DNA from: a virus
DNA length: 64,000 bases
Virus record (IMG/VR): IMGVR_UViG_3300027712_000018
Direction: 5' to 3' (one strand)
Shown: in pieces, positions 45,330-61,729 of the stretch
Numbering within the stretch: the first letter of the stretch is position 1
Layout: each line of letters starts with the position of its first letter
Made by a program: the position numbers and the translations under genes
Notes under the pieces: generated by a model
What the model saw: the letters and a program-made list of their open reading frames with translations, nothing else
The model's database searches: none
Told to the model about the DNA's origin: nothing

Positions 45330-46872
45330 AGAACCGTCAAAGATTAAAGATCTACTCGCAGCAGTCAATGCTAGCAGTGGTGTCAATAAACTTGGCATCA
45401 AAGTTGATTACGCTGCTGGTTCAATGCTCGAAGGCAGTTTAAACGAGTTAAAACACTCTGCGAAGTTGCAAGTCGAATACTTAAGTCAATTGGTTGGGTT
45501 TCAAGAACAATCTCTCAAAGATGCCAGATTGAAAAGTGTTCAGGGTGACAGTACTGAGAAACTTCAAGACAAAAAGGGAATCGGGTCTGATCTGGCGAAC
45601 GCTGGTAAGGCGGGTCTAGATGCTGCATTTGCTGCTGGTGGACCATTCGGCGCTTTGGTTGGTTTGATGATAAACGGTCTTATTGGTGCAACATTGGCAT
45701 ACAAAGCCGTTAAACCGTCAAATGCCAGAGAAAATGCCGAACTAACGACAGAAAAGAAAGTTAAAGAAACTAGGGCGCAGGCAGAGGAAAGAGCAAGAGC
45801 TAAAGCCGAAGCTGATGCAAAAAGAGCTAAATTAGAAGAGATAAGAGAATCTCAAGCGGCCGAATTAGAAGACGCTAGAGCTCGATCAAGAGCAGCTCGT
45901 GCGGCCGCCGAAGGTCCAAGAGTTTCAGAAAGAGGTGATCCATTACGAGGTAACGCAAAAAAGCTCCAACAAGCTAGATACGACAGAGAATTGGATGTGG
46001 CAGATAGATTAGAGTCTGAAAAACTCCGCAATCTTTCAAGTACCGATATGGCTCTTGATGCAACAAAGGGTGCTGGCGCTGTTGGCGATGTTGTCGCTAC
46101 AGAAAAAGGTGCGGGGGCTTTAGGTCTTGCAAAAGGCGCCAAAGGGCTTTTGAATCTGGCCGATAAGGTAGCATTACCTCTGCAAGCACTAATAACACTT
46201 TTGGATGTCACATCAGAAGAGAATAAAGATAGAAACAAATTAGGAGCAACTGTCAAAAGTTTAGCAGGGAGCTTTACTGGACTTTTGGATTTGCTAGCAT
46301 ATGTTCCGGGTGTAAATAAAATTCCGGGTGTTGGTGGGGCTACTGAGGCTTTAAACAGTGGATATGATTATGTAGCTAATTCTGCCATTGGAACCGCCTA
46401 CGGTGATGTTATGAACGAAGTCGGGGAGAAAACGGGGCTTACATCAGTTTATCATGGCACCGTAGTGCCATTAGGAACTGGTGTACGAGCACTTGGTTCT
46501 GCCTATATGAATCATCTGGAAGCGGGCGATATGTCTCGAACGAACCCATATGGACCAGAAAATCCTTCAATGTTGGTGGCAAAAATGATTAAAGATTATA
46601 CGACAGATCCAGAAACTGGCGCTTTATTATCCCCTCAACAACTTGAAATGAAGCGTGAAATGTCTCGTCTTTCAGCACCACAATCTTCATCCACACCACC
46701 AATTGTCGTAGTCCCACCGCAATCACGACCAGACGGAGGCGGTTCTAATATTGTCAACTCACACAACACTCAGAACACTACGGTCATTCAGAAAAATGAC
46801 GCATCAACGAGTTTGGCTATGGGGTGGACCATGCTTGGCTATGGATTTGGTTCAATACCTATGGGGCAATAA
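45322..46872 (+). CDS. Probable tape-measure/hub protein (gp29-like)
   Basis: Follows gp26/gp51; Ala/Gly-rich helical sequence with charged stretch and hydrophobic segments; C-terminal NIVNSHNTQNTTV typical of T4-like TMPs. Confidence 0.6.
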   Translation: MAEEPSKIKDLLAAVNASSGVNKLGIKVDYAAGSMLEGSLNELKHSAKLQVEYLSQLVGFQEQSLKDARLKSVQGDSTEKLQDKKGIGSDLANAGKAGLDAAFAAGGPFGALVGLMINGLIGATLAYKAVKPSNARENAELTTEKKVKETRAQAEERARAKAEADAKRAKLEEIRESQAAELEDARARSRAARAAAEGPRVSERGDPLRGNAKKLQQARYDRELDVADRLESEKLRNLSSTDMALDATKGAGAVGDVVATEKGAGALGLAKGAKGLLNLADKVALPLQALITLLDVTSEENKDRNKLGATVKSLAGSFTGLLDLLAYVPGVNKIPGVGGATEALNSGYDYVANSAIGTAYGDVMNEVGEKTGLTSVYHGTVVPLGTGVRALGSAYMNHLEAGDMSRTNPYGPENPSMLVAKMIKDYTTDPETGALLSPQQLEMKREMSRLSAPQSSSTPPIVVVPPQSRPDGGGSNIVNSHNTQNTTVIQKNDASTSLAMGWTMLGYGFGSIPMGQ

Positions 46873-46875
46873 TGT

Positions 46876-46900
46876 AAAAAGGGAAGCTTTCGCTTCCCCC
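46876..46900 (-). terminator. Rho-independent terminator after gp32
   Basis: GGGAAGC-GAAA-GCTTCCC-TTTTT on the - strand between convergent genes. Confidence 0.8.
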
Positions 46901-46906
46901 TCTTGA

Positions 46907-47821
46907 TTAATCTTCTGCGAGTGTCTTGAAGAAACTCATATCTGGATCATCATCGTCAATGTCTGGAGATGGAGTCTCTGCCAGTTTAGGAGCTTGACGC
47001 TCTTTGAACTTAGGAGTATAATCCATCTCCTCGTCGTCCTCAGCAGCATTGCCTGTGGGTGCGTGGTTGCTGCCGTCAAGACCAAGAACCTTGTAGAACT
47101 TAGCCTTGAGTTCCTCATAAGACTTGAAGTTTTTAGGATCGACGATCTCTTTGAGGGAGTGTTCCTGCTTGTAGACCGATTCAAGGGCATCATCATCAGT
47201 CAGCAATGGACCCTTGGCCATAAAGTCTGACTTGTCGTAGTTCTGATAACCTTCATACTTGCGGATCTTAAGCTGGAAGTTTGCTCCTTCCCACAGATCA
47301 AATGGGTTAATCTTTTCTTCACCGTATTGTGGTGCCATCAAATCCTTGAGCTTCTCAAAGATCTTCTTACCATACTTATACAAGAATACCTTGCCTTCGT
47401 TCGAAGGATCGGCGGGGTCTTTTACGATGTAGATGTTTGAGTAGTAGTTCTCACGGCGCTTCTGCTTACGTACTTGTTTACGTGCAGGCGAATCGTCATC
47501 CTTGGTGGAGTTCCAAAGCTCGGAGTTGAACTCAGAAACAGGGTCAGGAAGACCTAGAGTGGTGAGTGAGTTCTCAATGTAGTAGATGCCGTTTGGTCCT
47601 TGAAAGCCGTGATCCCAACGGCGAACCCAAGGCATATCTTCGCCTTCTGGTGGGGGAAGGAAACGAATGACTGCATAACCGTTGCCAGCCTTATCGACTG
47701 CTGGTTTCCAATACTTTTCGGAGTCGTCGTTGTAACTTGACTTGCCCATCTTGGACAGTTGATCGTTCAGGTTCGACATAGCCGAAGAACGATTCTTTTT
47801 GAGGTCTGCGAAATTAACCAT
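46907..47821 (-). CDS. gp32: Single-stranded DNA-binding protein gp32
   Basis: WKP.VDKAGNGYAVIRFLP, HGFQGP..YIENSLTT, YKYGKKIF, NPFDLWEGANF.LKIR and acidic tail. Confidence 0.95.
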   Translation of the reverse strand: MVNFADLKKNRSSAMSNLNDQLSKMGKSSYNDDSEKYWKPAVDKAGNGYAVIRFLPPPEGEDMPWVRRWDHGFQGPNGIYYIENSLTTLGLPDPVSEFNSELWNSTKDDDSPARKQVRKQKRRENYYSNIYIVKDPADPSNEGKVFLYKYGKKIFEKLKDLMAPQYGEEKINPFDLWEGANFQLKIRKYEGYQNYDKSDFMAKGPLLTDDDALESVYKQEHSLKEIVDPKNFKSYEELKAKFYKVLGLDGSNHAPTGNAAEDDEEMDYTPKFKERQAPKLAETPSPDIDDDDPDMSFFKTLAED

Positions 47822-47831
47822 AGTGTTATCC

Positions 47832-48443
47832 TTATGTTGCGGAATATTGCGATGTATTACGGAATGTGTTTACGATTGTAGTCTTTACTTTGTCTGCGTC
47901 AAATGTCAGAAACGGTCTGTACTTAACGCATTGTCTCTTTATATCAGGCCAGATGATTTTGTCAACTAGTTTTTTGTCCCAATATCGAAAAACATTTGTC
48001 ACTTCGTTTATCATAATCAAGGTCTCAGGGTGAATCTGTTTTGATTGATACGCTCTGAGGATCTTTGGATGTTGACCGTCTTTTGATAACAGATTGGTAT
48101 CGAAGTTTTCATCCAAATTATTTATATCCTGTTGTAAGACATACATCAATGATTGCTGAACTTTCTTCCAATCACTGTATATCTTTTCAGTCTTTTCATC
48201 GCCTAGATCACCAATCCATAGAGAAGGATTACGTACCATGTTGGCTAGGATATAGTCTTTTGCATCTGATCGCTTTGCAAGCTTGTAGAAGAAGAACTTG
48301 TCCTTCCTGTTCTCGAATGCGAGAGATGATACGTTTACCTTACCGTTATACTTGAAGAAGTCATAATCGGTGTTGAAGTGCCGTTTTAGGGCAAGGTAGT
48401 ATACGTACAGTTCGAAGGCGTCTTTTGTTGAGTAGATGCTCAT
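47832..48443 (-). CDS. gp59: Helicase loader gp59
   Basis: YLALKRHF..YDFFKYNGKV...F..RKDKFFFYKLAK; adjacent to gp32. Confidence 0.9.
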   Translation of the reverse strand: MSIYSTKDAFELYVYYLALKRHFNTDYDFFKYNGKVNVSSLAFENRKDKFFFYKLAKRSDAKDYILANMVRNPSLWIGDLGDEKTEKIYSDWKKVQQSLMYVLQQDINNLDENFDTNLLSKDGQHPKILRAYQSKQIHPETLIMINEVTNVFRYWDKKLVDKIIWPDIKRQCVKYRPFLTFDADKVKTTIVNTFRNTSQYSAT

Positions 48444-48670
48444 ACTGGTAATTTTGATGTCTTTTCTGCCATAAGGTTTAAAGTCTCGGCTTGTTCTCGA
48501 ACCTTCGACTTAAGAACGACTGAACGTCTAATGATTTCTCCAATCAATTCAATTTCGACATTATGTATTTCAGAATAATGAACCAAGGCATCAATAAGTG
48601 TAACATCCTTATTGACATAATTCTCAACTTCTTTTAGAATGACTTCTGCTGTTAATTGCATATTACTCAT
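48440..48670 (-). CDS. gp33: Late promoter co-activator gp33
   Basis: IDALVHYSE..NVEIE...LKSKVREQAETLNL...SKLPV; gp33-gp59-gp32 synteny. Confidence 0.85.
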   Translation of the reverse strand: MSNMQLTAEVILKEVENYVNKDVTLIDALVHYSEIHNVEIELIGEIIRRSVVLKSKVREQAETLNLMAEKTSKLPV

Positions 48671-48866
48671 TCAGAGTTTTAATGCCGAGTGCCCAGTTTT
48701 CAGCAGCGTCTTCTACATAATGAAGTGATTTACCCTCGAAGCTTTCGGTCTTGAACAGATCACCATTTGCATTGTGGAAATGAATTGAGTATCCACTATC
48801 TTCTTTGACTACTTCGGCTCTTGCTCTAGAGTTGTTGTTCTCATAGAATGTTGATATTAGTTGCAT
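48663..48866 (-). CDS. Conserved hypothetical protein
   Basis: SLHYVEDAAENWALG motif common in T4-like phages; AGGGG RBS. Confidence 0.6.
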   Translation of the reverse strand: MQLISTFYENNNSRARAEVVKEDSGYSIHFHNANGDLFKTESFEGKSLHYVEDAAENWALGIKTLNE

Positions 48867-48891
48867 GGTTTCCCCTTATAATGTACAGTTT

Positions 48892-48913
48892 GGGGAGTGC
48901 CGAAACACTCCCC
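48892..48913 (-). terminator. UUCG stem-loop (terminator or stabiliser) after the OMP gene
   Basis: GGGGAGTGT-TTCG-GCACTCCCC; no U-tract follows on the - strand. Confidence 0.55.
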
Positions 48914-48920
48914 TTATTGA

Positions 48921-49286
48921 TTAGAACTTAAGTTCAGCGCCGATAATAGCACCATCAAAGTTAAAGTCAGCATCTGAAGTAGACTTGACGTATGTCACAA
49001 GATCCAACTTTCCTGTTGGGTAGTATTCGACGCCTACAGTGGCTCCAGCGAAGACGATATCCTGTAGATCAACATCAGTGTTAACATACACTGAGAGACC
49101 TTCTGCGGGGACGTAACGCAGTTCGGGAGTGGCTGTGGTAGTCCATAGTTCGACGCTGGTGTCGTACTCCACGACGATATCGTTATTAAACTGAACACCA
49201 GTTTTACCTAGATCAACTGCGAATGCAGAGCCAGCGGCAAGTACAAGTGCGGTTACGGTCATAAGAAAAGTTTTCATCATTGTCAT
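48921..49286 (-). CDS. Small exported beta-barrel outer-membrane-like protein
   Basis: Signal peptide MKTFLMTVTALVLAAGSAFA; alternating beta-strand pattern; C-terminal GAELKF. Confidence 0.65.
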   Translation of the reverse strand: MTMMKTFLMTVTALVLAAGSAFAVDLGKTGVQFNNDIVVEYDTSVELWTTTATPELRYVPAEGLSVYVNTDVDLQDIVFAGATVGVEYYPTGKLDLVTYVKSTSDADFNFDGAIIGAELKF

Positions 49287-49302
49287 CCTATATTGTTTGT
49301 GT

Positions 49303-49605
49303 TGGTGATGGGATTCTGTTTCAAGGTTCCCATCGGACCCATGTAGATTAGGCCGCTAGGGCGTAAGCTACAGGTGCGAAATTTTCATTTGCATTTGTAA
49401 TTTTCTTCGCATTAACCCAGCTTAGATCGGGGTAGCTCCATCCTGCCTAGTTCGCCTGTCGATCCTGTTTTACCCCCAGCAAAGATACACCACATGCGAC
49501 TTCCATATTGGCTGCAACCCTGTTAACAAGGCCGAGTGTATCCGTGGTGGAGGTAACGGGTACTGCCCCCGTGTCCAGAACGTGTTCAGTGAATATCATC
49601 ACTAC
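49303..49605 (-). ncRNA. ssrA: Circularly permuted (two-piece) tmRNA
   Basis: Acceptor piece ACGGG-GGCAGTA-CCCGT-TACCTCCACCA ends at 49545; coding piece starts GGGGGTA at 49477 (7-bp acceptor stem with G3:U70); tag ANENFAPVAYALAA* at 49392-49348; outer ends approximate. Confidence 0.93.
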
Positions 49606-49610
49606 AAGGT

Positions 49611-49618
49611 TATTTATA
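49611..49618 (-). promoter_or_regulatory. T4-type late promoter driving tmRNA
   Basis: Exact TATAAATA immediately upstream of the tmRNA acceptor piece. Confidence 0.85.
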
Positions 49619-49644
49619 ACATAGGAAATAACATCTGTCAAGCG

Positions 49645-49830
49645 TTATCCACGATCATATCGTCTAATCTTCTCTTCATGTGTCATATGTCGTTTAACAT
49701 ACTCTTCAGGAACCTTACCGATACCTACGACACGATCCCATTCACGTTGGGTGTACGTAGCTTGATCCCAAGGTAATTGGGTATAAGTAGATTCGACGGT
49801 AATAGTGTCATTTTCGTCTTTTTTATCCAT
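49645..49830 (-). CDS. Hypothetical protein
   Basis: 61-aa ORF coupled to the upstream gene; YTQREWDRVVG motif. Confidence 0.5.
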   Translation of the reverse strand: MDKKDENDTITVESTYTQLPWDQATYTQREWDRVVGIGKVPEEYVKRHMTHEEKIRRYDRG

Positions 49831-50428
49831 TCGGTTCGTCCTTATAGAAGATGTGGTTGTCTATACGTGAAGTACGAGAGTAATCAACATTCCACTTAGG
49901 ATCTACCTTTGTTGAGTGAAACATGATAGACCCATCAGTCGGATCCTCATATTTATTATAATTCAACATCACAGATTCGGCAATATGTAAAGCTTCGAAC
50001 CAAGCTTTGGTGTCTTTAGGTTTATCCGACTTACCGTCATTAGTCCAAGAGAACTGATCTTTCTCCCAAACCACATCACAGATCGTCTTTGGATAGTGAG
50101 TCGAATGTGTTCGATTTAGCGTGACCCAAGCCACAGCTGTTTGTCCTAGTTTGGATTCCCCTCTAGACTCAAAGTAAATATTGAGAGCTAAACATTTCTT
50201 CTGTTTAATATCTACAGCAGGAGGCGGTGGTATTGTTATAGTAGGTGTGACTACTAGTGGGAATTTTAATGACATATTAGTCATAGCAGTCGTATCGACA
50301 ATAGTATATTTAATCTCATCTGTAATGGGTTGATCATATGGTGCCTGTTTGGCACTTACACTTATCATTACCATACTAGTTATTATGGCAGTGGAAAGTA
50401 TAGTACCTAATGAGGTTATGATTCTCAT
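49823..50428 (-). CDS. SleB/Hydrolase_2-family cell wall hydrolase with N-terminal membrane/signal segment
   Basis: CLALNIYFESRGES..GQ.AVAWVTLNR..YP.TICDVV..QFSW...DPTDGS..FH...IDNHIFY. Confidence 0.9.
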   Translation of the reverse strand: MRIITSLGTILSTAIITSMVMISVSAKQAPYDQPITDEIKYTIVDTTAMTNMSLKFPLVVTPTITIPPPPAVDIKQKKCLALNIYFESRGESKLGQTAVAWVTLNRTHSTHYPKTICDVVWEKDQFSWTNDGKSDKPKDTKAWFEALHIAESVMLNYNKYEDPTDGSIMFHSTKVDPKWNVDYSRTSRIDNHIFYKDEPNG

Positions 50429-50460
50429 TAGATCTAATCCTTATATTGTTGCTATAGCTC

Positions 50461-50488
50461 ATTATACACACTCCTGAAGAGTTGTCAA
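50461..50488 (-). promoter_or_regulatory. Sigma70-type promoter TTGACA-N16-TATAAT
   Basis: Perfect hexamers upstream of the cell wall hydrolase. Confidence 0.8.
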
Positions 50489-50528
50489 CGAATAAATACT
50501 TATATGCAAAAAAGGTAGGATTGCTCAA

Positions 50529-50825
50529 ATGTCAGAAAAAAGCAGCCTTGATTATGATGGAGATGGCAAGATTTCAGAAGATGATATTAAAACAAAACAA
50601 GATCTGATAGAGATCGACAATCAAGACAAAAAAGAAGACCAGCAACGCCGTATGGCATGGCTGGCTATGGGGTCTATGGTTATCTTCACTGCCATGCTAT
50701 TCGTACCCTTGGTTAGTGTCGAACGACTACAGGCGATAGACAATATCTTGGGCATGTTTTACATTGCCCAAGCTGGTGTTGTTGCTACCTTCTTTGGAAG
50801 TCAGGCCTACCTGAGTAAGTCTTAG
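50529..50825 (+). CDS. Small two-TM membrane protein with EF-hand-like loop (holin candidate)
   Basis: DYDGDGKISEDD loop and two hydrophobic segments; late-promoter-like AATAAATA at 50491-50498. Confidence 0.55.
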   Translation: MSEKSSLDYDGDGKISEDDIKTKQDLIEIDNQDKKEDQQRRMAWLAMGSMVIFTAMLFVPLVSVERLQAIDNILGMFYIAQAGVVATFFGSQAYLSKS

Positions 50826-51815: not shown

Positions 51816-51843
51816 AATATAGTCGATTCTGACGGAATGTCAA
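51816..51843 (-). promoter_or_regulatory. Early promoter cassette copy (TTGACA-N16-TATATT)
   Basis: TTGACATTCCGTCAGAATCGACTATATT upstream of DUF932. Confidence 0.75.
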
Positions 51844-52022
51844 CACTTATTTTGAAAAAATTTCACAATCTTGAAGTCCAGATCGGTCAACTTTTTCACA
51901 TAGGGAAGGCCTTGGTGACACAACAGGTCACCGACACGAGCGAACTCGTTAGCGATCTTGTCGTTGGGATAGGTCTGTGCGACAGTCATCATACGGTCGC
52001 CGAGGGTCTGAAGTTTGTTCAC
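51840..52022 (-). CDS. Hypothetical early protein
   Basis: AGGAG RBS; stop TGA lies inside the next promoter's -35 box. Confidence 0.55.
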   Translation of the reverse strand: MNKLQTLGDRMMTVAQTYPNDKIANEFARVGDLLCHQGLPYVKKLTDLDFKIVKFFQNKC

Positions 52023-52051
52023 GATAGCTCCTTTTCGCTTCCTACATACTC

Positions 52052-52079
52052 AATATAGTCATTTTCAAAAGAATGTCAA
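52052..52079 (-). promoter_or_regulatory. Early promoter cassette copy
   Basis: TTGACATTCTTTTGAAAATGACTATATT. Confidence 0.8.
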
Positions 52080-52089
52080 GCCATTCGAC

Positions 52090-52114
52090 AAAAAAAGATC
52101 GCCCGAAGGCGATT
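52090..52114 (-). terminator. Rho-independent terminator
   Basis: ATCGCC-TTCG-GGCGAT-CTTTTTTT directly upstream of a promoter cassette. Confidence 0.8.
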
Positions 52115-52116
52115 AT

Positions 52117-52353
52117 TTAGTAGATATATTTGTCTCGAAAGGTCGCTTTCGGAAAGATCCGCTTCAGCGCCGTGACGATGTGTGCATCAGTCACCGTTCG
52201 ATCACCGTAGGCGTTTTCAAGGCATCCCGCTCGCCGTGCAGCTGCCCACGCATCTGCTCCTAGTCGAATGTCCTCGACGGTCAGAGATTTCTCTTTGAGA
52301 TAAGCTTCGACCATACCAGACCAACGCTTCACAGTCTCAGAATTGAACTTCAT
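52117..52353 (-). CDS. Hypothetical early protein
   Basis: 78-aa ORF, ATGA-coupled; DAHIVTALKRIFP motif. Confidence 0.55.
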   Translation of the reverse strand: MKFNSETVKRWSGMVEAYLKEKSLTVEDIRLGADAWAAARRAGCLENAYGDRTVTDAHIVTALKRIFPKATFRDKYIY

Positions 52354-52532
52354 TTGAAGCCTCCAATGGGAGAGTAAGTTGCAACGATCTTACCCGTGTT
52401 TATTTCGACGATGTTACACTCGAAGCCGCAGGCCACAGCCTTCGCTTTCGCAGCCGCAAGGTCAGTGAACTTCTTGCCGAGAGAGTAGCCGAAGTTGTAG
52501 AAGTGAATGTCGAGCATCTTATAACCCCTCAA
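52350..52532 (-). CDS. Hypothetical early protein
   Basis: Short ORF in a coupled operon; true start may be the internal MLDIHF. Confidence 0.5.
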   Translation of the reverse strand: MRGYKMLDIHFYNFGYSLGKKFTDLAAAKAKAVACGFECNIVEINTGKIVATYSPIGGFK

Positions 52533-52737
52533 AGTAACGGATGTCAGCTTCGGTAGTGTGCGGATCTTCCGCCTGAATTCGACGAACGAGTTCGTCCCAC
52601 AACGAGTCAGCTTTACGCAGGATCATGTCGGCGAGACTGTAGGCTTCGTTGGCGAACGCCGTCTCGCTGTTCTTGCGGAGCAACGGAATGGCGGTGCGGA
52701 TCTGGTCAAGTGTCAGGTCTTCGTAGGACATCATCAT
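52519..52737 (-). CDS. Hypothetical early protein
   Basis: GAGGAG RBS + ATGATGATG directly behind a promoter cassette. Confidence 0.6.
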   Translation of the reverse strand: MMMSYEDLTLDQIRTAIPLLRKNSETAFANEAYSLADMILRKADSLWDELVRRIQAEDPHTTEADIRYFEGL

Positions 52738-52756
52738 CTCCTCTGTCTACACTACT

Positions 52757-52784
52757 AATATAGTCATTTTGAAAAGAATGTCAA
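52757..52784 (-). promoter_or_regulatory. Early promoter cassette copy
   Basis: TTGACATTCTTTTCAAAATGACTATATT followed by AGTAGTGTAGACAGAGGAG. Confidence 0.8.
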
Positions 52785-52807
52785 GCCCCTTCGCCAACTT
52801 TTTTCGA

Positions 52808-53158
52808 TTATTCTGCCATGGCGTAGGCGATGGAGATTTTCATCTCCATCAGATCCTCGATTTGTTTGAACCCGAAACTGTCCACGATGAACGTGCCTTC
52901 GGGGCTGACGAAGATGTCGCCGACAGAGGCACTATAACCATTATCCATCTTGCGAAGTGTTACGCCGAGATACCCGTTACCCATGTTGGCAACATCAAAT
53001 GCAATCTCAAGATTGTCGGTATCGACCTCGAACTGTGGTGTGTAGAAGTTTACGAACTCAGTCTGCCACTTGTCGGCGCCGAGCATCATCGCATACTTCG
53101 CCTCTTTCTGTTCTTCAGAAGCGAAGTACGTCCAGCGGTTTTGATAGATCGTGATCAT
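52808..53158 (-). CDS. Hypothetical early protein with YodL-like motif
   Basis: SASVGDIFV...FIVDSFGF..I resembles the YodL-like S.SVGD/VDxxGF signature. Confidence 0.5.
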   Translation of the reverse strand: MITIYQNRWTYFASEEQKEAKYAMMLGADKWQTEFVNFYTPQFEVDTDNLEIAFDVANMGNGYLGVTLRKMDNGYSASVGDIFVSPEGTFIVDSFGFKQIEDLMEMKISIAYAMAE

Positions 53159-53169
53159 GTTATATCTCC

Positions 53170-53322
53170 TTACAGATCAACCATAGTCCAAACACGGTCA
53201 GCCAGTTGTGCATCTTCTTTTAACATGATCCACAACGCTTTCGGGATCACTTGGAGCCCTTTCGAAGCATTTGTTTTCGCATAGTCGTTATAGGTCGGGT
53301 GTTCCCAAGCAGCCATCATCAT
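53170..53322 (-). CDS. Hypothetical early protein (50 aa, not in ORF track)
   Basis: GAGGAG + ATGATGATG behind a promoter cassette; MMMAAWEHPTYNDYAK...WTMVDL. Confidence 0.55.
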   Translation of the reverse strand: MMMAAWEHPTYNDYAKTNASKGLQVIPKALWIMLKEDAQLADRVWTMVDL

Positions 53323-53341
53323 CTCCTCTGTCTACACTACT

Positions 53342-53369
53342 AATATAGTCATTCTGGCGAGAATGTCAA
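53342..53369 (-). promoter_or_regulatory. Early promoter cassette copy
   Basis: TTGACATTCTCGCCAGAATGACTATATT. Confidence 0.8.
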
Positions 53370-53602
53370 GCCTCTACTTCATTTTTATTTTGAACTTTTT
53401 CGATTCGAACCAACTTGTGTTCTGTCTCGCAGATGTTGTCAAAATCCTCTTCGTCGATGACGTACTGGCTGTGTTCGACTACGTAACTGATACGGCGATC
53501 AATCTCTTCTGAAGCCCAACCCCAAGCCTCCCATTCCGTATCGAAGTATTTGATGGTCGGATTCGAATCAGTGTAGTAGGTTGGGTAAGTCACTTTGTAC
53601 AT
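53366..53602 (-). CDS. Hypothetical early protein
   Basis: Likely start MYKVTYP at 53602 with AGGAG RBS; stop lies in the promoter -35 box. Confidence 0.55.
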   Translation of the reverse strand: MYKVTYPTYYTDSNPTIKYFDTEWEAWGWASEEIDRRISYVVEHSQYVIDEEDFDNICETEHKLVRIEKVQNKNEVEA

Positions 53603-53739
53603 TCTGTACTCCTTTTGTATCCATCCCAGATGGCTCGACGATAACCGGGGCTCAGTTGATACCACTGCTCTTGTGTCATATCGCAATCAGGCGGTGGTTC
53701 AGTTGGTGTTGGCGGGGCTTTGTAGGTCCAAAAACTCAT
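53590..53739 (-). CDS. Hypothetical protein (49 aa, not in ORF track)
   Basis: MSFWTYKAPPTPTEPPPDCDMTQEQWYQLSPGYRRAIWDGY...; ATGA-coupled to the upstream stop. Confidence 0.45.
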   Translation of the reverse strand: MSFWTYKAPPTPTEPPPDCDMTQEQWYQLSPGYRRAIWDGYKRSTECTK

Positions 53740-54107
53740 AGACCCAACAACTTCTTTTCTTCTTCCGACAACTTCGACAAGGCTGCGGAACGAACGTCTC
53801 GCTTTCGTTGTTCTTCAAGTTTGTGCGCTTCAAGAAGGTCTAGAGTCCAACCCATTTCATCTAAGACATTGTCGTCTTCAAGAGAGAAGTTGTAAGCGAC
53901 ACGGAAACCGTCTTCGCCGTCTGGACGCAAGAGATTGAAACCCATCCAAGTCGCCGTTGCAACAGGAACAACTTCGTAGCCGAAGTGGTGCGCCCGACTC
54001 AAAGCCCGCATGAGTTTACGTGGATATTCCTTGGTGAGTTGTACCACCATCTCTTCTTGCTCTGCGGCTTCACGAAGCAGACGCTCTGTTTTAGTTTCAC
54101 GTGCCAT
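53736..54107 (-). CDS. Hypothetical early protein
   Basis: MARETK...; C-terminal ALSKLSEEEKKLLGL motif common in phage early proteins. Confidence 0.6.
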   Translation of the reverse strand: MARETKTERLLREAAEQEEMVVQLTKEYPRKLMRALSRAHHFGYEVVPVATATWMGFNLLRPDGEDGFRVAYNFSLEDDNVLDEMGWTLDLLEAHKLEEQRKRDVRSAALSKLSEEEKKLLGL

Positions 54108-54108
54108 A

Positions 54109-54291
54109 TCACATTCCATTTTCTTTGAGAAGTTTGCGATAAGTGGGATGCCACTTGATCACCTTTAGTTTGCGGTAGGGTAATGAAACATAGGCATCAG
54201 TCTTGCCTTCACGAGCAAGTGCGATGCGAATCGCTTGCTTCATCAAGTCCTGACGAAATCCAATATCAATCATATGACAGATGTCGCTCAT
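54109..54291 (-). CDS. Hypothetical early protein
   Basis: First ORF behind the promoter cassette at 54320. Confidence 0.55.
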   Translation of the reverse strand: MSDICHMIDIGFRQDLMKQAIRIALAREGKTDAYVSLPYRKLKVIKWHPTYRKLLKENGM

Positions 54292-54319
54292 TTGGTTCCC
54301 TTTCGTCCCCTACAGTCTC

Positions 54320-54347
54320 AATATAGTCATTTTCAAAAGAATGTCAA
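54320..54347 (-). promoter_or_regulatory. Early promoter cassette copy
   Basis: TTGACATTCTTTTGAAAATGACTATATT. Confidence 0.8.
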
Positions 54348-54360
54348 GCCGTATTTTCGA

Positions 54361-55764
54361 TTATTCGATAAATTTTTCTAGACCAACCAATTCCTTCTCT
54401 ACGGGATCTTCTTCGTAGTCGGTTGGATCGGCCGATTCAATTCTGGCTTCTGCAATCTTCATGTAGTTTGGATCAAGCTCGATACCGACAAACCTAAAGT
54501 TTTCTAAAACAGCGGCCTTGCCAGTCGATCCAGAACCCATGAATGGGTCTAAGACGATTCCGTTAGGAGGCGTCACCAATCGGCATAGGTATCGCATAAG
54601 GTCAGTAGGCTTGACGGTAGGGTGGAAATTCGTCGCCGTATTCCAACGACCATATGGGTTTCCAGTTTCCCCAGCATCAGCCTTGGACGTATGGTTAGGG
54701 CGAAACTCGGCGCCTGCCTTACGGTGTTCAGCCATGCCTTCCATTCCTTCATTACGATCTTTCTTGGAAGTCTTGGCGCAATAGAAGAAACGAGCGGCTG
54801 AACCACCATCATTGTAACCTTCCCACGGAACTCGACCATATTCACCGTAACAGTTGGCATTTTCGTCGCCAGTTTTGCTCTGTTCTTTGCCTGATACATT
54901 ACCACCAGATTTTGCGTTTGGGAAAAGGGAAACGACTTCTTCGCTACCATCATGGATGAAGTTGGCAGGGAAACGCCCCAATGTTTCAGAACGAGCCGTT
55001 GATGCTAGGCTACGTTCTGCGGAAATAGCGACAGAATCTGTGTCTTGCATCCACGGGCGTTGCCATCCTTCATGCTTTCCAGACCTATCAACTTCGGCAC
55101 TATTGTTTCCACCGCCAAGCTTCTCCCCCATATGAGGCACACGGCAATCATCAATATTGATACCACCAGTTCCATACTTCAATACATTAGCGGCAACAGT
55201 CTTTTCTTCTAACGGCTTTCTTGCAACAGTGATTGGTTCTAATGCGGGCTTTAGCGCAGTCCCCCAACCTTCCCATTGTTTTGCTTCATCTGTGGCTGGA
55301 ACGCTCACGCTTGGTTGATATTCTCGACCATTGTCTTTGATCCAAGAACCAGTGGCGTTTTGATCTGCACCGGGAATCATACGTTTTACTGCGTTACCAA
55401 CTGGTGTGAGATTTCGTTCTGCACCAGCAGATTTATCAATCGCTTTGCTAACGTCCATCGACTTAGGAAACCCCGAACCATACACCCATGCAATCATATC
55501 ACGAATTTCAAAACCCGCATCTTCGATACGAACCGCCATACGATGTTGAGTACGTGTTCCAGCAAATGCTAACAGATACCCACCCGGTTTCAGAACCCGC
55601 AAGGCTTCCTCCCAAATCTCTTGAGAAGGAACATCATAGTCCCATTTCTTTCCCATGAAGGAAAGTCCATAAGGTGGATCAGTAACAATGCTATCAACAC
55701 TGTTACTTTCCATGGTTTTCATAACGTCTAGGCAGTTGCCGTTGTGTAGGGTAAATGTTTTCAT
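54361..55764 (-). CDS. DNA methyltransferase, N6-adenine/N4-cytosine, beta class
   Basis: Catalytic TDPPY near the N-terminus; HPTVKP and VLDPFMGSGSTG SAM-binding motif near the C-terminus. Confidence 0.92.
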   Translation of the reverse strand: MKTFTLHNGNCLDVMKTMESNSVDSIVTDPPYGLSFMGKKWDYDVPSQEIWEEALRVLKPGGYLLAFAGTRTQHRMAVRIEDAGFEIRDMIAWVYGSGFPKSMDVSKAIDKSAGAERNLTPVGNAVKRMIPGADQNATGSWIKDNGREYQPSVSVPATDEAKQWEGWGTALKPALEPITVARKPLEEKTVAANVLKYGTGGINIDDCRVPHMGEKLGGGNNSAEVDRSGKHEGWQRPWMQDTDSVAISAERSLASTARSETLGRFPANFIHDGSEEVVSLFPNAKSGGNVSGKEQSKTGDENANCYGEYGRVPWEGYNDGGSAARFFYCAKTSKKDRNEGMEGMAEHRKAGAEFRPNHTSKADAGETGNPYGRWNTATNFHPTVKPTDLMRYLCRLVTPPNGIVLDPFMGSGSTGKAAVLENFRFVGIELDPNYMKIAEARIESADPTDYEEDPVEKELVGLEKFIE

Positions 55765-55774
55765 GTCTTGGCCT

Positions 55775-56893
55775 TTATCTGATAATGTCGATTTTGTTCA
55801 TGGTTTCTTCGGTCCAGATCTCTTGCTCGTGTCGAACCTTGCCTTCGGCGGTAAGAGTCTGATACCGACTAGACGCCTTCCTTTGCCACCAAGCGATCAT
55901 GCTCGCCAGATGATGCTTGTCATAGTTCTCTTTACTCTTGACGAGCTTCGAAGTTTGACCCAACAACACCTCACGGGTGTTCTCAAACCCATAGGTGGAC
56001 ATGTAGAAGCGCTTCTGTGTGGTGATGTCGGTGCTGACCTTGACCGCTGCCACAAACTGATCGTAGAGGGTCTTATCGTGTCTCTTGAGTTCCTGCTTGA
56101 CGATGCTGACCATCTTCGTTTGCATCTTCAACTTTCTCGACGATTCGGTTCTTGCCACCAAAGGCTCGTCATCGTTTCTCTTCGTGAACCATAGATTCAT
56201 TTCATTATAAAACTCATCTGACAGTGTCAACATGAACTTGCTCTCAGTGTCGCCTGTGTGACGAATGAATGGCTTTAGTCCATCGTATTGACTAGTCCCC
56301 TTGATGCTACCGTACAGTGACGTAGTCTCGAACAGGCACGTATCCATCTCAGGATACTTCTTGTTGACCATCTCACGAACTTCGTGTGAACTACAGACCA
56401 AGGATAACAGTTTGCCGCCTAGGTAGTTAAACCCAAACGGTTGAGTCGGCACAATGATGTAACCCATAATAGCATGACGGTTAAACACCTTCAGATCTGG
56501 CACGCCGCCAAGCCAGTCGTTTCTAGGTTTGGAATTGATCAGAGGCGATGCTAGTTTGATGAACCCAACATAGGTGTTGGTGTTCTTCTCTTTGACGCCG
56601 AGCTTCAATTGCTTACCGGGACTGCTCTCGTAAGTGAACGAGGCAGTCATCTCAAGCATGGTGTCGAACTGAGAATTGGCGACTTCGACGACCTCGAAGT
56701 CCATATCATTCGGAAGCATGTTGAAGTTGGAGAACATATCACCTTCGAACCCAAACCCAGCCAGAGTTGTGGGTAAGGATCTGATACGGTCTATCTTCTT
56801 CATACGAAAGTATTCTTCTATAGTTGAATACTTCTGCATGTAGTCAATGAACCTTGACGCTACGTATGTAGTATCATCTTTACTGAGCTCCAT
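55775..56893 (-). CDS. DUF4338 / Druantia DruA-like protein
   Basis: IVPTQPFGFNYLGGKLLSLVCSSHEVR, FETTSLYG...SQYDGL and GDTES pattern. Confidence 0.7.
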   Translation of the reverse strand: MELSKDDTTYVASRFIDYMQKYSTIEEYFRMKKIDRIRSLPTTLAGFGFEGDMFSNFNMLPNDMDFEVVEVANSQFDTMLEMTASFTYESSPGKQLKLGVKEKNTNTYVGFIKLASPLINSKPRNDWLGGVPDLKVFNRHAIMGYIIVPTQPFGFNYLGGKLLSLVCSSHEVREMVNKKYPEMDTCLFETTSLYGSIKGTSQYDGLKPFIRHTGDTESKFMLTLSDEFYNEMNLWFTKRNDDEPLVARTESSRKLKMQTKMVSIVKQELKRHDKTLYDQFVAAVKVSTDITTQKRFYMSTYGFENTREVLLGQTSKLVKSKENYDKHHLASMIAWWQRKASSRYQTLTAEGKVRHEQEIWTEETMNKIDIIR

Positions 56894-57488
56894 CCAATAT
56901 CTCCTGTTTTTCTTTTACTTTTGTTCCCAACTCGACAAGCCAATTTTCAATCGCATTTTTAATCGCATCTGCAAGTGACGACATTTGGACGTTTACAGTA
57001 TCCACATTCTTAAAAATGAAAATCAACTTAGCATGTGGAATGATGGCGTCAATACCGTCTCCCGCAGCCTCCAAACATGGCTTAAGATCTTCCCAACTAA
57101 TGATGGCCATCGCATCTTCTTGGCCGATCAAGTAGAAATCGGCAGGATTTTCGATATTGATACCTTTGTTGGACCCACGACTGTTTTTGATTCGAATGCG
57201 AGTAGTTTTGACTGGATTCCCACGTTCTGAAATCATGGAATAACTAGCAAACTTGAATTCTACTTTAAACCCACGCTTTTTATCAATGTGATCGTAACCG
57301 ACTTGATCGACTGCCTCTAGACGATAGTTTGAAGCTATTTCGACCACTTTTTCCATCACATTACCCTTGATGGGCAAATAGATTCGTCCATTAAGCTCTT
57401 TCGCAACAGACTTAGCGCCTGCGCTATATATTTGCTCGTTAATCACATCATTCAAGATGTCTGCATATGTAGCGGTATCCATTACCAT
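56880..57488 (-). CDS. Putative PD-(D/E)XK endonuclease
   Basis: Start reassigned to 57488 (AGGAG RBS, own promoter); E...GYDHID.....VEFK catalytic-like motif. Confidence 0.5.
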   Translation of the reverse strand: MVMDTATYADILNDVINEQIYSAGAKSVAKELNGRIYLPIKGNVMEKVVEIASNYRLEAVDQVGYDHIDKKRGFKVEFKFASYSMISERGNPVKTTRIRIKNSRGSNKGINIENPADFYLIGQEDAMAIISWEDLKPCLEAAGDGIDAIIPHAKLIFIFKNVDTVNVQMSSLADAIKNAIENWLVELGTKVKEKQEILDGAQ

Positions 57489-57506
57489 TCTCCTTTGTTC
57501 ATAACA

Positions 57507-57535
57507 ATAATAGCATGTCAATTGACCGTTGTCAA
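57507..57535 (-). promoter_or_regulatory. Sigma70-type promoter TTGACA-N17-TATTAT
   Basis: Directly upstream of the nuclease/DruA-like/MTase operon; -35 box overlaps the DenV-like stop codon. Confidence 0.7.
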
Positions 57536-58035
57536 GCGGCTTTTTGAAACCAAGACGGAATTTCCCGCTTGGTCCAAACCATCTTGAAACGGTCTTGCTT
57601 GGTCTGATAGAACTCACGGTAGGATCGTACAGGATCTTCGGGGTGAATACACTCAGGATTACTACCCATGGCCAGAGCGAAGGCGGTACGGTAGTTGGTG
57701 GGGATGTTTGTGGGGTAGTTTGACACTACGTTGCGTAGTAGGGAGTCTGACTTGTGAACCTTACCGTAACGGTGCGTATACTCGTCACACAACGCTACAA
57801 AGTGTTGGTAGAGCCACCAGTAGTTGCCGGTGGTCTTACGTGCCCACACGGTACAGGGATGGTTGGCATGACAGGTTCGATACAGGATGTCGGGTTGGCG
57901 AACCTTGTCACCGTCTAACAGACGATGGACAGCGCAAAGCATCTGAGCCGACTCGACGATCATCTTGACGACATGCTTGTCACATTGCATCTTGGCCGCA
58001 AGAACGGGGTCTTCTGATAACACAAAAATGTTCAT
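57532..58035 (-). CDS. Pyrimidine-dimer DNA glycosylase (DenV/endonuclease V-like)
   Basis: MNIFVL..DP..AA..QCDKHVVKMIVESAQML, HANHPCTVW and EYTHRYGKVH. Confidence 0.8.
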   Translation of the reverse strand: MNIFVLSEDPVLAAKMQCDKHVVKMIVESAQMLCAVHRLLDGDKVRQPDILYRTCHANHPCTVWARKTTGNYWWLYQHFVALCDEYTHRYGKVHKSDSLLRNVVSNYPTNIPTNYRTAFALAMGSNPECIHPEDPVRSYREFYQTKQDRFKMVWTKREIPSWFQKAA

Positions 58036-58059
58036 GATGTATCCTTTGTCTACACTATC

Positions 58060-58087
58060 AATATAAACATTTTTGAAAGAATGTCAA
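58060..58087 (-). promoter_or_regulatory. Early promoter cassette copy
   Basis: TTGACATTCTTTCAAAAATGTTTATATT. Confidence 0.75.
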
Positions 58088-58758
58088 GCCTTATCTGCAA
58101 ATAATTCCCATTTTCCTTCGATTGTTTCGACCAAAACCGTACAGTGTTCGACCCAATCGCCTGTGTTCATGTAGTAGTCGGTCATCTTGGGAATGTGAGT
58201 GTGACCGCATATGACGGCATCGTAACCGTTTAACTTACCATATTTTGATAACATTTTTTCAGTTCCCGTCACTCGAAGGTATCGGTAAGGGGTTTGGTTT
58301 AGTGCCTCGGCACGTTCGATCCACTTGATAGGAATGAGGTCGCCTATTCGTGCCAGAGAGTTGATTAGCTTCTTGGGGAACCTCATCCACATATCGAACT
58401 GATCCCCATGCGTGACGAGGATCCTACGACCGTCTACAGCATGATAAACGTGCTTGTTAGCTATGGTGCAGTTACCGAAGCTGAAGTTGTATTTGAAGAA
58501 AGGTCTTACGAAATCGTCATGATTTCCTGGAGCGTAGTAGACTTTAGATGACATACTCATCTCTAAGATTTTTCGAATCACTTGCGTCTGTTTGTCGGTC
58601 CAGTATTGTTTGCGTTGCAGAGCCCATCCGTCAATGATATCCCCAACCAAAAACAGATTGTCACAAGTGTTAGAGTCAAGGAAACTCAGAAGCTTCTTAC
58701 TCTTTGCATGTCTTGTGCCTAGATGTAGATCTGAAATGAAGATGCTTTTGTAATGCAT
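58084..58758 (-). CDS. Calcineurin-like metallophosphoesterase, LpxH2/PlcP-type
   Basis: FISDLHLG, LVGDIIDGW, PGNHD, HGDQFD, ICGHTH and YMNTGDWVE. Confidence 0.82.
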   Translation of the reverse strand: MHYKSIFISDLHLGTRHAKSKKLLSFLDSNTCDNLFLVGDIIDGWALQRKQYWTDKQTQVIRKILEMSMSSKVYYAPGNHDDFVRPFFKYNFSFGNCTIANKHVYHAVDGRRILVTHGDQFDMWMRFPKKLINSLARIGDLIPIKWIERAEALNQTPYRYLRVTGTEKMLSKYGKLNGYDAVICGHTHIPKMTDYYMNTGDWVEHCTVLVETIEGKWELFADKA

Positions 58759-59427
58759 TTAGAACCCATGAATTTCAGTATATTTCTTTCGCAAAGCAAT
58801 AAAGTCGTGGATGTGGTCGTCTCGCTTCTCGACAAACTCTTGTGGTATACCGTCATCCGTCATCACCAAAGTCACTAGTTGACTGATAGGTTTACCTACC
58901 CGCTCCTCGAAGGCCACAGCGTAGAATGACTCTTGCATGAAGTAACTCTTGATCCACTCAGGCTTCTTGGCACGGCGAGAGGTCTTGAAGTCAATGATGG
59001 ACAACTTACCCCGCCACTCCGCAACCAAGTCTACACGACCCGCCACTTGCATGAAGTGAGAATATAAAGGCGCTTCTTGATACCAGATGTTGTTTAGGTG
59101 TTTGTCGAGCAGAGGCTTGATCTGGTTGAACATCTCAACGTTGATCGGCATCTTCTTTCGAATGTAGTCGGGCTTGTTGTCGATATATTCCTCGGCAATC
59201 AAGTGTACCTCAGTGCCACGGTCTGTGGCCTGCGTGCTTATGCGCTGGGCTTCAGCTTCCCCTACCCGTGCCTTCCACACGTCTAGGCCAGTCTTATCCT
59301 GAATGGCCAAGACGGTGGTGACAGATGGATACTTGCCACCACCAGTTGGGTAATAGAATCGTCCTGTTGGTGTAGTCTCACAGTATAAATCGGGAAGTTG
59401 AATCCCGTGGCTCACATGGTTAAACAT
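58759..59427 (-). CDS. PD-(D/E)XK exonuclease (T4-like phage exonuclease next to phoH)
   Basis: YPSVTTVL, W..RVG..EA, RGT.VH, AGRVDL..IIDFKTS and YFMQ..Y. Confidence 0.85.
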   Translation of the reverse strand: MFNHVSHGIQLPDLYCETTPTGRFYYPTGGGKYPSVTTVLAIQDKTGLDVWKARVGEAEAQRISTQATDRGTEVHLIAEEYIDNKPDYIRKKMPINVEMFNQIKPLLDKHLNNIWYQEAPLYSHFMQVAGRVDLVAEWRGKLSIIDFKTSRRAKKPEWIKSYFMQESFYAVAFEERVGKPISQLVTLVMTDDGIPQEFVEKRDDHIHDFIALRKKYTEIHGF

Positions 59428-60188
59428 TACAATCCTAATTTGTCTCTAGCTATGATGTATGACTTCACAAGGTCAGATCTTACTATATCATCAACAAAGA
59501 ATTCTGTAAACTCAAATTCTTCCATTCCACGAATGATTCGAATGAAATCGGCGATACCCGATTGTTCGTTGAACCTTTTGTTGGTCAAGTCGTCTTGTTT
59601 GATGTCACCCGCAAAGATGATCTTGCAGTTCTGGCCAACACGTGTCATGACGGTATGGAGCTCACCATCATTCATGTTCTGCATTTCATCAACAACAATG
59701 ATACAGTTATCAAAAGTAACGCCACGAAGGAACGAGGTGGATCTGAACTCTATCATATTCTTTTGTTTTAGAATCGAATACGCATCGCCTCGACCAAACA
59801 ACTTTTCACAGATAGGTGGATAAGGCTCTTCGTATACTGCCTCTTTCTGTCCACGAGTTCCTGGCATGAATCCTTGGTCACGTGTCGATACCGTAGATCT
59901 GATGAGCCAAACTTTCTCATGATCGTTTCTTTTATCAAAAACGTCTTTGAGAGCGAAGTACAGAGCCATGAAGGTCTTACCTGTACCAGCGATACCATGT
60001 AACATCACGTTATTGCCTGCGGCCCAAGACTCGAAAGCCTTGCGTTGGTTTTCTGTCATAGGCTGAATATCGGCGGTGATGCCAAATCCTGCTGACAGTT
60101 TGTTACCATCTTCAAGTACACCGTCTTGTTTTAATACTCTCTTCTGTCTTTTTGAAATTCTGGACGATCTTTGTTGTTGAAAAGCCAT
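59427..60188 (-). CDS. phoH: PhoH-family ATPase
   Basis: GIAGTGKT, GFMPG, SFLRGVTF, DEMQN, TRVG, GDIKQ and DIVRS. Confidence 0.93.
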   Translation of the reverse strand: MAFQQQRSSRISKRQKRVLKQDGVLEDGNKLSAGFGITADIQPMTENQRKAFESWAAGNNVMLHGIAGTGKTFMALYFALKDVFDKRNDHEKVWLIRSTVSTRDQGFMPGTRGQKEAVYEEPYPPICEKLFGRGDAYSILKQKNMIEFRSTSFLRGVTFDNCIIVVDEMQNMNDGELHTVMTRVGQNCKIIFAGDIKQDDLTNKRFNEQSGIADFIRIIRGMEEFEFTEFFVDDIVRSDLVKSYIIARDKLGL

Positions 60189-60198
60189 ATTGTGCTCC

Positions 60199-60435
60199 TT
60201 AGTTGCGAGTCTCGATTGTACCGTGTGGGTGGGCGCTCTTGGCCTTCTTTAGGACATCATTGAATCCGTTATCTATTCGGCGGACTCCTAGACGTACTGA
60301 GTCGCCAAAGGCAACAACTGGTGGGACTTGCATGTATTTGGGATTTTGTTCTAGAAACGATTCTCTTTCTGCTAGTGATAAGACCTGAGTAGTTTCTTCT
60401 AATGTTTCTTTGTTTCGAAACGTATATGTTGGCAC
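60199..60435 (-). CDS. FmdB-like small protein
   Basis: GTG start at 60435 with AAGGAG RBS: (M)PTYTFRNKET...DNGFNDVLKK; usual phoH neighbour. Confidence 0.6.
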   Translation of the reverse strand: MPTYTFRNKETLEETTQVLSLAERESFLEQNPKYMQVPPVVAFGDSVRLGVRRIDNGFNDVLKKAKSAHPHGTIETRN

Positions 60436-60449
60436 ATCATGCTCCTTAT

Positions 60450-60480
60450 AAAAAAAGGGCAGCTGATGAAGCTGCCCTTT
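60450..60480 (-). terminator. Rho-independent terminator
   Basis: AAAGGGCAGC-TTCATCA-GCTGCCCTTT-TTTT. Confidence 0.8.
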
Positions 60481-60497
60481 CACTTCTACCATCAAGG

Positions 60498-60505
60498 TAT
60501 TTATA
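60498..60505 (-). promoter_or_regulatory. TATAAATA late-promoter motif overlapping a stop codon
   Basis: Exact motif; includes the TAA of the upstream gene. Confidence 0.5.
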
Positions 60506-61082: not shown

Positions 61083-61469
61083 TTAGGCAGCTTTCAAGGT
61101 AAGTTCAACTTCTTCGAACAAGGGTTTCGTGTTGCTGGCGACGAACCAACCTTCGCCGTCCCACAAGTAGAGGTAGGGGACATGGGACACTTGGCCCTCT
61201 TCAGTCAGCTCAATCAAGTATTCCTCAACCGAGCCGAAGGTCATCGGTTTGTCTTTGTGAACCGCTTCCGCCAAGCTCTTAGTGTAGTCGATGTAGAGAG
61301 CGGAGAGGTAACCACCGTAGGCGACCGTATCGGCAGCGGTGGTGGTGTTGTAGCTTTCGGTCAAGGTCTGACCGTTGCCACCGACGATATAACCGTCATA
61401 GTGGCAGTAAGAGGCGACGACTTCGCCAGTGGTTTCGTTCCAAACGCCGATCAAAGATGCAGTACCCAT
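61083..61469 (-). CDS. Conserved hypothetical early protein
   Basis: YCHYDGY and YLYLWDG..W motifs; behind a promoter cassette. Confidence 0.6.
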   Translation of the reverse strand: MGTASLIGVWNETTGEVVASYCHYDGYIVGGNGQTLTESYNTTTAADTVAYGGYLSALYIDYTKSLAEAVHKDKPMTFGSVEEYLIELTEEGQVSHVPYLYLWDGEGWFVASNTKPLFEEVELTLKAA

Positions 61470-61495
61470 GAGGATCTCCTTTTCCCTACACTACT

Positions 61496-61524: not shown

Positions 61525-61527
61525 GCC

Positions 61528-61722: not shown

Positions 61723-61729
61723 GTTCTCC

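Follow-up and report, generated by a model that had tools for sequence, protein, structure and literature searches.

The stretch of viral DNA analysed here (IMG/VR virus record IMGVR_UViG_3300027712_000018, 64,000 nt, hereafter the window) belongs to an uncultured T4-like myophage and carries a complete phage-encoded two-piece tmRNA of the alphaproteobacterial type. We consider it likely that this is a functional tmRNA that has been inherited within a lineage of T4-like myophages and is not freshly derived from a host. The gene lies a short distance upstream of the late-transcription coactivator gene gp33, under a promoter in which a phage late box is joined to host-type elements.

Structure of the tmRNA gene

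A permuted tmRNA (tmRNA*) with the tag ANENFAPVAYALAA* is the sole RNA gene that ARAGORN reports in the 64-kb window. Two Rfam models match the locus over their full lengths: alpha_tmRNA (RF01849) with 96.7 bits against a gathering score of 50 (E = 4e-25, 49645-49304, model positions 1-355), and tmRNA_permuted (RF04321) with 102 bits against a gathering score of 47 (49606-49348, model positions 1-213). Within its Rfam clan, alpha_tmRNA is the best model. In an unconstrained minimum free energy (MFE) fold (z = -2.8) the T-arm and the acceptor stem form, and so do both hairpins, that of the spacer and that at the 3' end. An earlier reading made from the sequence only had proposed a permuted two-piece tmRNA of this type on the minus strand, with a G3:U70 pair, a hairpin-closed 67-nt segment, a tag, and a closing hairpin, and had suggested a covariance-model search as a check. 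All of these elements are found where that reading had placed them, and ARAGORN and both covariance models agree on the assignment (Table 1).

Table 1 Features of the tmRNA locus and its neighbours in the window
Feature	Position	Strand	Basis
-35 hexamer TTGACA, perfect	49636-49641	-	Read from sequence
TATAAATA, T4-type late promoter motif and sigma-70 -10 (TATAAA), preceded by TGT (extended -10)	49611-49618	-	
Acceptor piece (~61 nt): 5' helix strand GUAGU, T-arm, TACCTCC, encoded ACCA	49545-49605	-	Rfam alignment start 49606
T-arm: ACGGG 49572-49568, loop GGCAGTA 49567-49561, CCCGT 49560-49556	49556-49572	-	Sequence, Rfam, fold
3' acceptor strand TACCTCC, followed by ACCA	49555-49549; 49548-49545	-	Read from sequence
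Intervening segment, 67 nt; hairpin closed by GATACAC 49542-49536 / GTGTATC 49490-49484	49478-49544	-	
5' acceptor strand GGGGGUA; G1 at 49477, presumed RNase P cleavage site	49471-49477	-	
Coding piece (~174 nt): helices to acceptor piece, tag frame, 3' hairpin	49304-49477	-	End-to-end alpha_tmRNA match 49645-49304
Tag frame GCA...TAA, ANENFAPVAYALAA*	49348-49392	-	ARAGORN, Rfam
3' terminal hairpin GAUGGGA...UCCCAUC, no T-run after	49307-49334	-	Sequence, Rfam, fold
Upstream cell-wall hydrolase (Hydrolase_2 / endolysin-like)	49823-50428	-	Pfam PF07486, 2.2e-24
Downstream ORF, 121 aa: signal peptide, beta-rich, ends ...LKF	48921-49286	-	
gp33, late-transcription coactivator	48440-48670	-	Pfam Trans_coact, 2.3e-9; PHROG late promoter transcriptional regulator, 6e-13
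gp59, helicase loader	47832-48443	-	phrog_269, 5.9e-55
gp32, ssDNA-binding protein	46907-47821	-	phrog_224, 7.8e-107; 54% identity to Sinorhizobium phage phiM12 group

The gene reads in permuted order: the T-arm, the 3' acceptor strand, and the CCA come first, and the 5' acceptor strand follows together with the tag frame. The T-loop GGCAGUA fits the alpha_tmRNA consensus GGCgGUA. GGGGGUA and UACCUCC pair at all seven positions of the acceptor stem, including the G3:U70 pair of alanine identity. The tag frame runs GCA AAT GAA ... GCG GCC TAA, with the alanine resume codon GCA, 14 residues, an ALAA end, and a stop. The 3' hairpin aligns with the 3' end of the alpha_tmRNA model, and both of its strands carry changes. 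The 67-nt intervening segment holds no credible ORF; its sole ATG frame has no ribosome-binding site and enters the coding piece. A listed 64-aa ORF (49447-49641) was rejected as spurious because its start coincides with the -35 hexamer and part of it covers the tRNA-like domain.

Conservation of the RNA

The strain-level relative L242, an IMG/VR contig of 6 kb, is 97.8% identical to window positions 46675-50547 (3.9 kb). Over the ~350 nt that extend from the -35 hexamer as far as the 3' hairpin, the two differ at only 2 positions: one change affects the promoter spacer, and the other is a synonymous GCG>GCA in the tag frame. The upstream ORF, in contrast, has five changes within its last 18 nt in L242. 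By this comparison the tmRNA is more conserved than its flanks in the sister strain, and it is under selection. Across the family the acceptor stem covaries, as CGCCTCC/GGGGGCG, CACCTCC/GGGGGTG, and, in the window, TACCTCC/GGGGGTA. Pairs 6:67 and 7:66 are U-A and A-U in the window, whereas the other 240 sampled loci have C-G/G-C or U-A/G-C. The window alone has TACCTCC/GGGGGTA, and two base pairs have therefore changed on both sides, in a compensated manner.

These features bear on the idea that the gene is a non-functional relic, either an attP-type fragment or a captured gene in decay. tmRNA fragments are frequent at temperate-phage attachment sites (PMC9004378), but the window gene has its two pieces as well as the tag frame and the 3' hairpin, the covariance-model match is full length, and the backbone is T4-like and lytic. 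We rejected an attP remnant and a pseudogene on the completeness of the gene, the lack of an integrase nearby, the compensated stem changes, and a conservation above that of the flanks, and a relic of either kind is barely credible. On the features of its sequence, the two-piece tmRNA is real and very probably functional.

The tags of the relatives are intact and mostly of the form ANDN...(A/R)LAA, and ALAA is the commonest ending in the viral and bacterial samples alike. ANDN is present in 59 of the 72 viral tags, and ANEN, the form in the window, in 4 of 72 viral versus 0 of 109 bacterial tags sampled. An interfering or re-targeting tmRNA, which competes for SmpB and whose ANEN in place of ANDN alters or evades adaptor-mediated degradation, would fit this viral occurrence of ANEN, and the CDS-less tmRNA of mycobacteriophage DS6A is stated to inhibit host tmRNA in E. 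coli (PMC11915505). This role is nevertheless very unlikely for the window gene, which keeps the full frame and the canonical C-terminal ALAA; the predominance of ANDN among phage tags and the conservative nature of a D to E change also speak against it. Between the CCA and G1, the discarded spacer has a median length of 82 nt in the phage loci (L002-L121) and 34 nt in the bacterial loci (L122-L241).

A late box fused to sigma-70 elements

The tmRNA promoter reads TTGACA-N17-TGnTATAAA and agrees with 11 of the 12 sigma-70 consensus positions in addition to the TGn. TTGACA and TATAAA are separated by exactly 17 nt, the spacer ends in TGT, and TATAAATA ends 5 nt ahead of the start of the covariance-model match (49606). 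A consensus promoter scan missed this promoter because the scan requires T at position 6 of the -10 element. The TTGACA hexamer had also escaped the sequence-only reading, in which the gene was placed under T4 late control.

TATAAATA occurs eight times in the window, versus 3.5 expected. Four copies without a -35 stand directly before structural genes (2169, 13860, 42705, and 42729); the first precedes a head-tail adaptor gene, and the last two are flanked by the head-closure and tail-tube-cap genes. Nowhere in the window except in the tmRNA promoter is a perfect -35 joined to the box. Another copy, within gp59 (48119-48126, minus strand), lies ~300 nt ahead of the gp32 start and might give gp32 a late promoter of its own. 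On the same strand, in the region 60440-60505, a copy overlaps the stop codon of a phrog_420 ORF; ~20 nt past it lies a strong intrinsic terminator (GGGCAGC...GCTGCCC followed by T7), and this box is either a coincidence or the source of a very short late transcript.

In more than half of the IMG/VR tmRNA loci (65/117) the late box is found at a fixed distance, 38-56 nt upstream of the T-arm, versus 0/117 bacterial loci; given how often the motif occurs in these viral loci overall, it should by chance stand there in 0.23 loci. On these viral-versus-bacterial position data the late box is therefore taken as a phage-specific adaptation. TATAAA occupies this position in 63 unique viral loci. All eight positions of TATAAATA are kept, because 60 of these 63 loci go on with TA, a conservation beyond the needs of a sigma-70 -10 element alone. 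Sixty unique phage loci with TATAAATA could be compared with TTGACA upstream: 23 match at 6/6 positions, with a spacing of 16-18 nt, 10 at 5/6, and 19 at 3/6 or fewer. The commonest phage design thus compared, which is also that of the window, is a host-type -35 added to the late box.

A gene expressed only late, from TATAAATA by the gp55/gp33 polymerase and for the burst of structural proteins, would be consistent with the fixed position of the box, with its eight-position conservation, and with the 19/60 unique loci that have no recognisable -35. We nevertheless regard late-only expression as quite unlikely. The -35 of the window is perfect, its spacing optimal, and its -10 extended by TG, and host polymerase should use such a promoter before any phage factor is made. 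A -35 with at least 5/6 matches is present in 33/60 unique relatives, the Melnitz promoter has been called early (PMC9004378), and the gene is situated within an early/replication block, with a further early-type promoter upstream at 50488 and no terminator between this and the tmRNA. Expression both early and late is the better reading because the box is at the same time a sigma-70 -10 element and the gene lies in the early/replication block. The tmRNA is thus probably expressed early and late, not late only, a timing that we infer from motif logic and comparative conservation. Of the T4 late promoter claimed earlier, the box itself is real and phage-specific, but exclusive late control does not hold, as the box forms the -10 of a TTGACA-N17 promoter.

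Early use of the tmRNA promoter is not guaranteed, because the stereotyped early promoters of the window differ from it. These belong to the family TTGACATTCTTTTGAAAATGACTATATT (TTGACA-N16-TATATT with a conserved spacer), with nine copies on the minus strand at 51.8-62.7 kb. The nine copies form near-identical cassettes (51816-62708), TTGACATTCTTTTGAAAATGACTATATT followed by AGTAGTGTAG, with the spacer kept as well; they start at 62708, 62291, 61524, 58087, 54347, 53369, 52784, 52079, and 51843, and each precedes a small early gene. Mobile promoter cassettes have been described for T4-type phages. The TTGACATTCTTTTGAAAATGACTATATT/AGTAGTGTAG cassettes could be akin to these, or could mark an operator site.

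Genomic context and host

The tmRNA gene lies ~0.6 kb upstream of gp33-gp59-gp32. Two ORFs intervene: the 121-aa ORF, which has no Pfam or PHROG family match and is possibly co-transcribed with the tmRNA, and a 67-aa ORF between it and gp33 on the tmRNA strand. The C-terminal ...LKF of the 121-aa ORF resembles that of outer-membrane proteins, and past this ORF lies a GC-rich hairpin (48892-48913) that lacks a T-run. Upstream, a 61-aa ORF is found besides the Hydrolase_2 gene, and in many relatives a cell-wall hydrolase of this family is likewise located beside the tmRNA. The tmRNA of several relatives has tRNA genes (Arg-tct, Ile-tat, Gln, Cys) directly next to it. Baseplate, tail, and neck genes occupy the left part of the window.

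In another part of the window, a 372-aa ORF (55775-56893, minus strand) carries the Pfam domain DruA of a Druantia defence protein (E = 1.2e-10) and matches the unknown-function family phrog_19197 over its full length. It is adjoined by a 467-aa DNA methyltransferase (54361-55764). The proximity of these candidate (counter-)defence genes would suit a tmRNA that serves mainly in counter-defence, rescuing ribosomes after the action of host mRNA-cleaving toxins or abortive-infection nucleases, and not in housekeeping; tmRNA is known to rescue ribosomes once mRNA has been cleaved by RelE-type toxins (cited in PMC9697503). On the other hand, no toxin or antitoxin is linked to the tmRNA gene, and its conserved neighbours serve replication and late transcription, or are tRNA genes in the case of relatives, a setting that fits general support of translation. 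We consider a mainly counter-defensive role unlikely.

No close isolate of the window phage was found by protein comparison of gp32 and gp6. The best isolate matches of these proteins are to phages of Sinorhizobium, Caulobacter, and Pelagibacter; for gp6 the identity is 43% with phiM12-type phages, 38% with Caulobacter phage Cr30, and 36% with Pelagibacter phage HTVC008M, and cyanophages rank behind. Mainly on these protein affinities to phages of Alphaproteobacteria, we favour, with moderate confidence, an alphaproteobacterial host. Such a host had been deduced earlier from the tmRNA type. The host remains plausible from gp32 and gp6, but the deduction fails: the tmRNA type does not name the host, because phage Melnitz has an alpha-type ssrA and infects OM43, which is not an alphaproteobacterium (PMC9004378). 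In the tmRNA tree described below, the nearest bacterial rows lie at a path length of 1.7, compared with 0.64 for viral rows, and the host is not resolved by the tree.

The window encodes no recognisable smpB, in agreement with the earlier reading; with four alphaproteobacterial SmpB proteins as tblastn queries the best E value is 0.44. The SmpB Pfam model likewise had no hit in five large relatives that carry a tmRNA, of which four are 90% complete or more, and matched the control genomes. As the phage supplies no SmpB in the 64-kb window, the RNA must, by our analysis, use that of the host, and presumably also host AlaRS, EF-Tu, RNase P, and proteases. This dependence is drawn from the established trans-translation pathway and assumes compatibility with the host factors.

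Phage copies and bacterial copies

blastn of the window tmRNA against 50,697 phage records gave no match, and the HTVC008M tmRNA matched only itself in the same records. These tmRNAs are too divergent for BLAST, and patterns and covariance models were therefore used. An alpha-type acceptor-piece pattern matched both IMG/VR contigs and bacterial genomes, in each case more than 120, the bacterial ones nearly all from Alphaproteobacteria; the bacterial comparison sample comprised 120 arbitrary species.

Among the sampled copies, the best 40 BLAST neighbours of the window tmRNA are all viral, and its best identity to any other copy is 73% over aligned positions. In an 81-row IQ-TREE phylogeny a single branch (SH-aLRT 97) separates the viral tmRNAs, that of the window among them, from the bacterial ones, and the viral/bacterial label needs one change; in a 232-row FastTree phylogeny this label needs two. 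The GC content of viral tmRNAs is 45.5% versus 55% in bacterial ones, and base composition could inflate this split. The exact 27-nt acceptor piece of the window was absent from 185,579 species genomes and matched one viral contig, the 6-kb strain-level relative. In dozens of IMG/VR loci the tmRNA is located beside Hydrolase_2, gp33, gp59, and gp32, and DUF932 is found in the vicinity. No permuted tmRNA is present in phiM12 or Caulobacter phage Cr30, whose proteins are the most similar among isolates.

The sequence-only reading had spoken of a captured ssrA, which suggests a recent capture. A recent capture is not supported, given the exclusively phage nearest relatives, the absence of the 27-nt piece from all species genomes searched, and a gp33 locus common to distant phages. 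The capture appears to be old, and the gene an old resident of this phage lineage. We propose, tentatively and with some doubt, that phage tmRNAs of this kind form one old phage-adapted lineage with its own design rules. Such rules may include TTGACA-N17-TATAAATA at a fixed distance, longer discarded spacers, use of host SmpB, and phage-only tags such as ANEN.

Relation to known tmRNAs

Among the closest known systems is that of the Methylophilales phage Melnitz, a marine OM43 myophage in which a two-piece ssrA of the alpha type, complete in all its parts, immediately precedes gp33 (Buchholz et al. 2022, PMC9004378). The same study counts 402 isolate phages with tmRNA, of which 53 have the two-piece form, and two-piece tmRNAs in 17/47 Melnitz-like contigs; it proposes that the Melnitz ssrA serves the upkeep of the hijacked translation machinery or tags proteins for amino-acid recycling (PMC9004378). 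Melnitz, related pelagimyophage contigs, and the window have in common a T4-like myophage genome with an alphaproteobacterial-type two-piece tmRNA just upstream of gp33. In both Melnitz and the window a sigma-70-type promoter precedes the tmRNA and no phage SmpB is reported; unlike Melnitz, the window has a full late box TATAAATA in this promoter as well. Its tmRNA sequence also appears very divergent. The glutamine riboswitch of Melnitz is absent from the window, as judged by Rfam.

A permuted tmRNA was also found in Pelagibacter phage HTVC008M (NC_020484.1, 145161-145370), with 90.6 bits to RF04321 and the tag ANFNEYALAA*. It sits in an unannotated gap of the RefSeq record. The gene is ~0.8 kb upstream of gp33, and, as in the window, two small ORFs separate it from gp33; these show no homology to the two ORFs of the window, and only their position is shared. 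The T-loop and the tag (ANFNEYALAA) differ from those of the window, the gp6 proteins are only 36% identical, and neither TATAAATA nor a TTGACA promoter is seen upstream of the HTVC008M tmRNA.

The two-piece ssrA of Caulobacter crescentus was reportedly described by Keiler et al. in 2000. The window gene resembles the alphaproteobacterial two-piece tmRNA (Caulobacter, RF01849) in gene order, the T-loop GGCnGUA, G3:U70, the encoded CCA, a tag of the AN(D/E)N...LAA type, and the 3' hairpin. It differs in its location in a phage genome, in being shorter than the RF01849 model, of which two outer helix segments have no counterpart in the alignment, in its spacer (67 nt compared with a bacterial median of 34 nt), and in its phage-type promoter, which is seen in 0/117 bacterial loci. 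The tmRNA database holds 79 phage sequences (PMC11915505). The one-piece tmRNAs of mycobacteriophages and other isolate phages are, like that of the window, phage-borne and without a phage SmpB, but they are standard non-permuted genes of other phage lineages.

Proposed mode of action

We suggest the following scheme. The RNA would be made as a single precursor that starts near 49605, ~6-7 nt past the -10 box, at what we infer to be the 5' end of the acceptor piece. The TTGACA-N17-TGnTATAAA promoter could be read early by unmodified host sigma-70 polymerase, and the embedded TATAAATA late by the phage gp55/gp33 polymerase, of which gp33 is encoded in the window and gp55 is presumed. A change of the late box from TATAAATA to TATAATGC would then abolish only the gp55/gp33 activity, and mutation of TTGACA only the sigma-70 activity. 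The RNA would probably be made throughout infection. Host RNase P would cleave ahead of G1 (49477), 3' trimming would expose the CCA at 49545, and the 67-nt spacer would be discarded on maturation. The acceptor stem and flanking helices would hold the two pieces together, host AlaRS would charge them with alanine, and they would act with host SmpB, the expected partner since the phage supplies none.

Ribosomes stalled on broken mRNAs would be freed in this way, and the peptides tagged for host proteases. The likely benefit is that ribosomes would be kept available and amino acids recycled after the shut-off of host transcription and the degradation of host mRNA. When T4 infects E. coli, most host transcripts are degraded and four stay stable, SsrA among them, and the authors of that study suggest that SsrA keeps ribosomes available (PMC9697503).

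Significance

Two-piece tmRNAs of phages have already been published, and the gene in the window is a divergent addition to the marine T4-like myophage class: it matches any sampled copy at no more than 73%, and its acceptor stem is unique among the samples. The comparative data add a phage-specific, position-fixed late box, usually fused to a sigma-70 -35, phage copies that cluster apart from bacterial ones, and near-complete relatives without SmpB. The conserved dual promoter is the one modest addition. The gene also serves as a warning that host prediction from the tmRNA type alone is unsafe. If expression from the dual promoter is indeed continuous, T4-like infection of these hosts would have a standing need for ribosome rescue, which would not be a late add-on.
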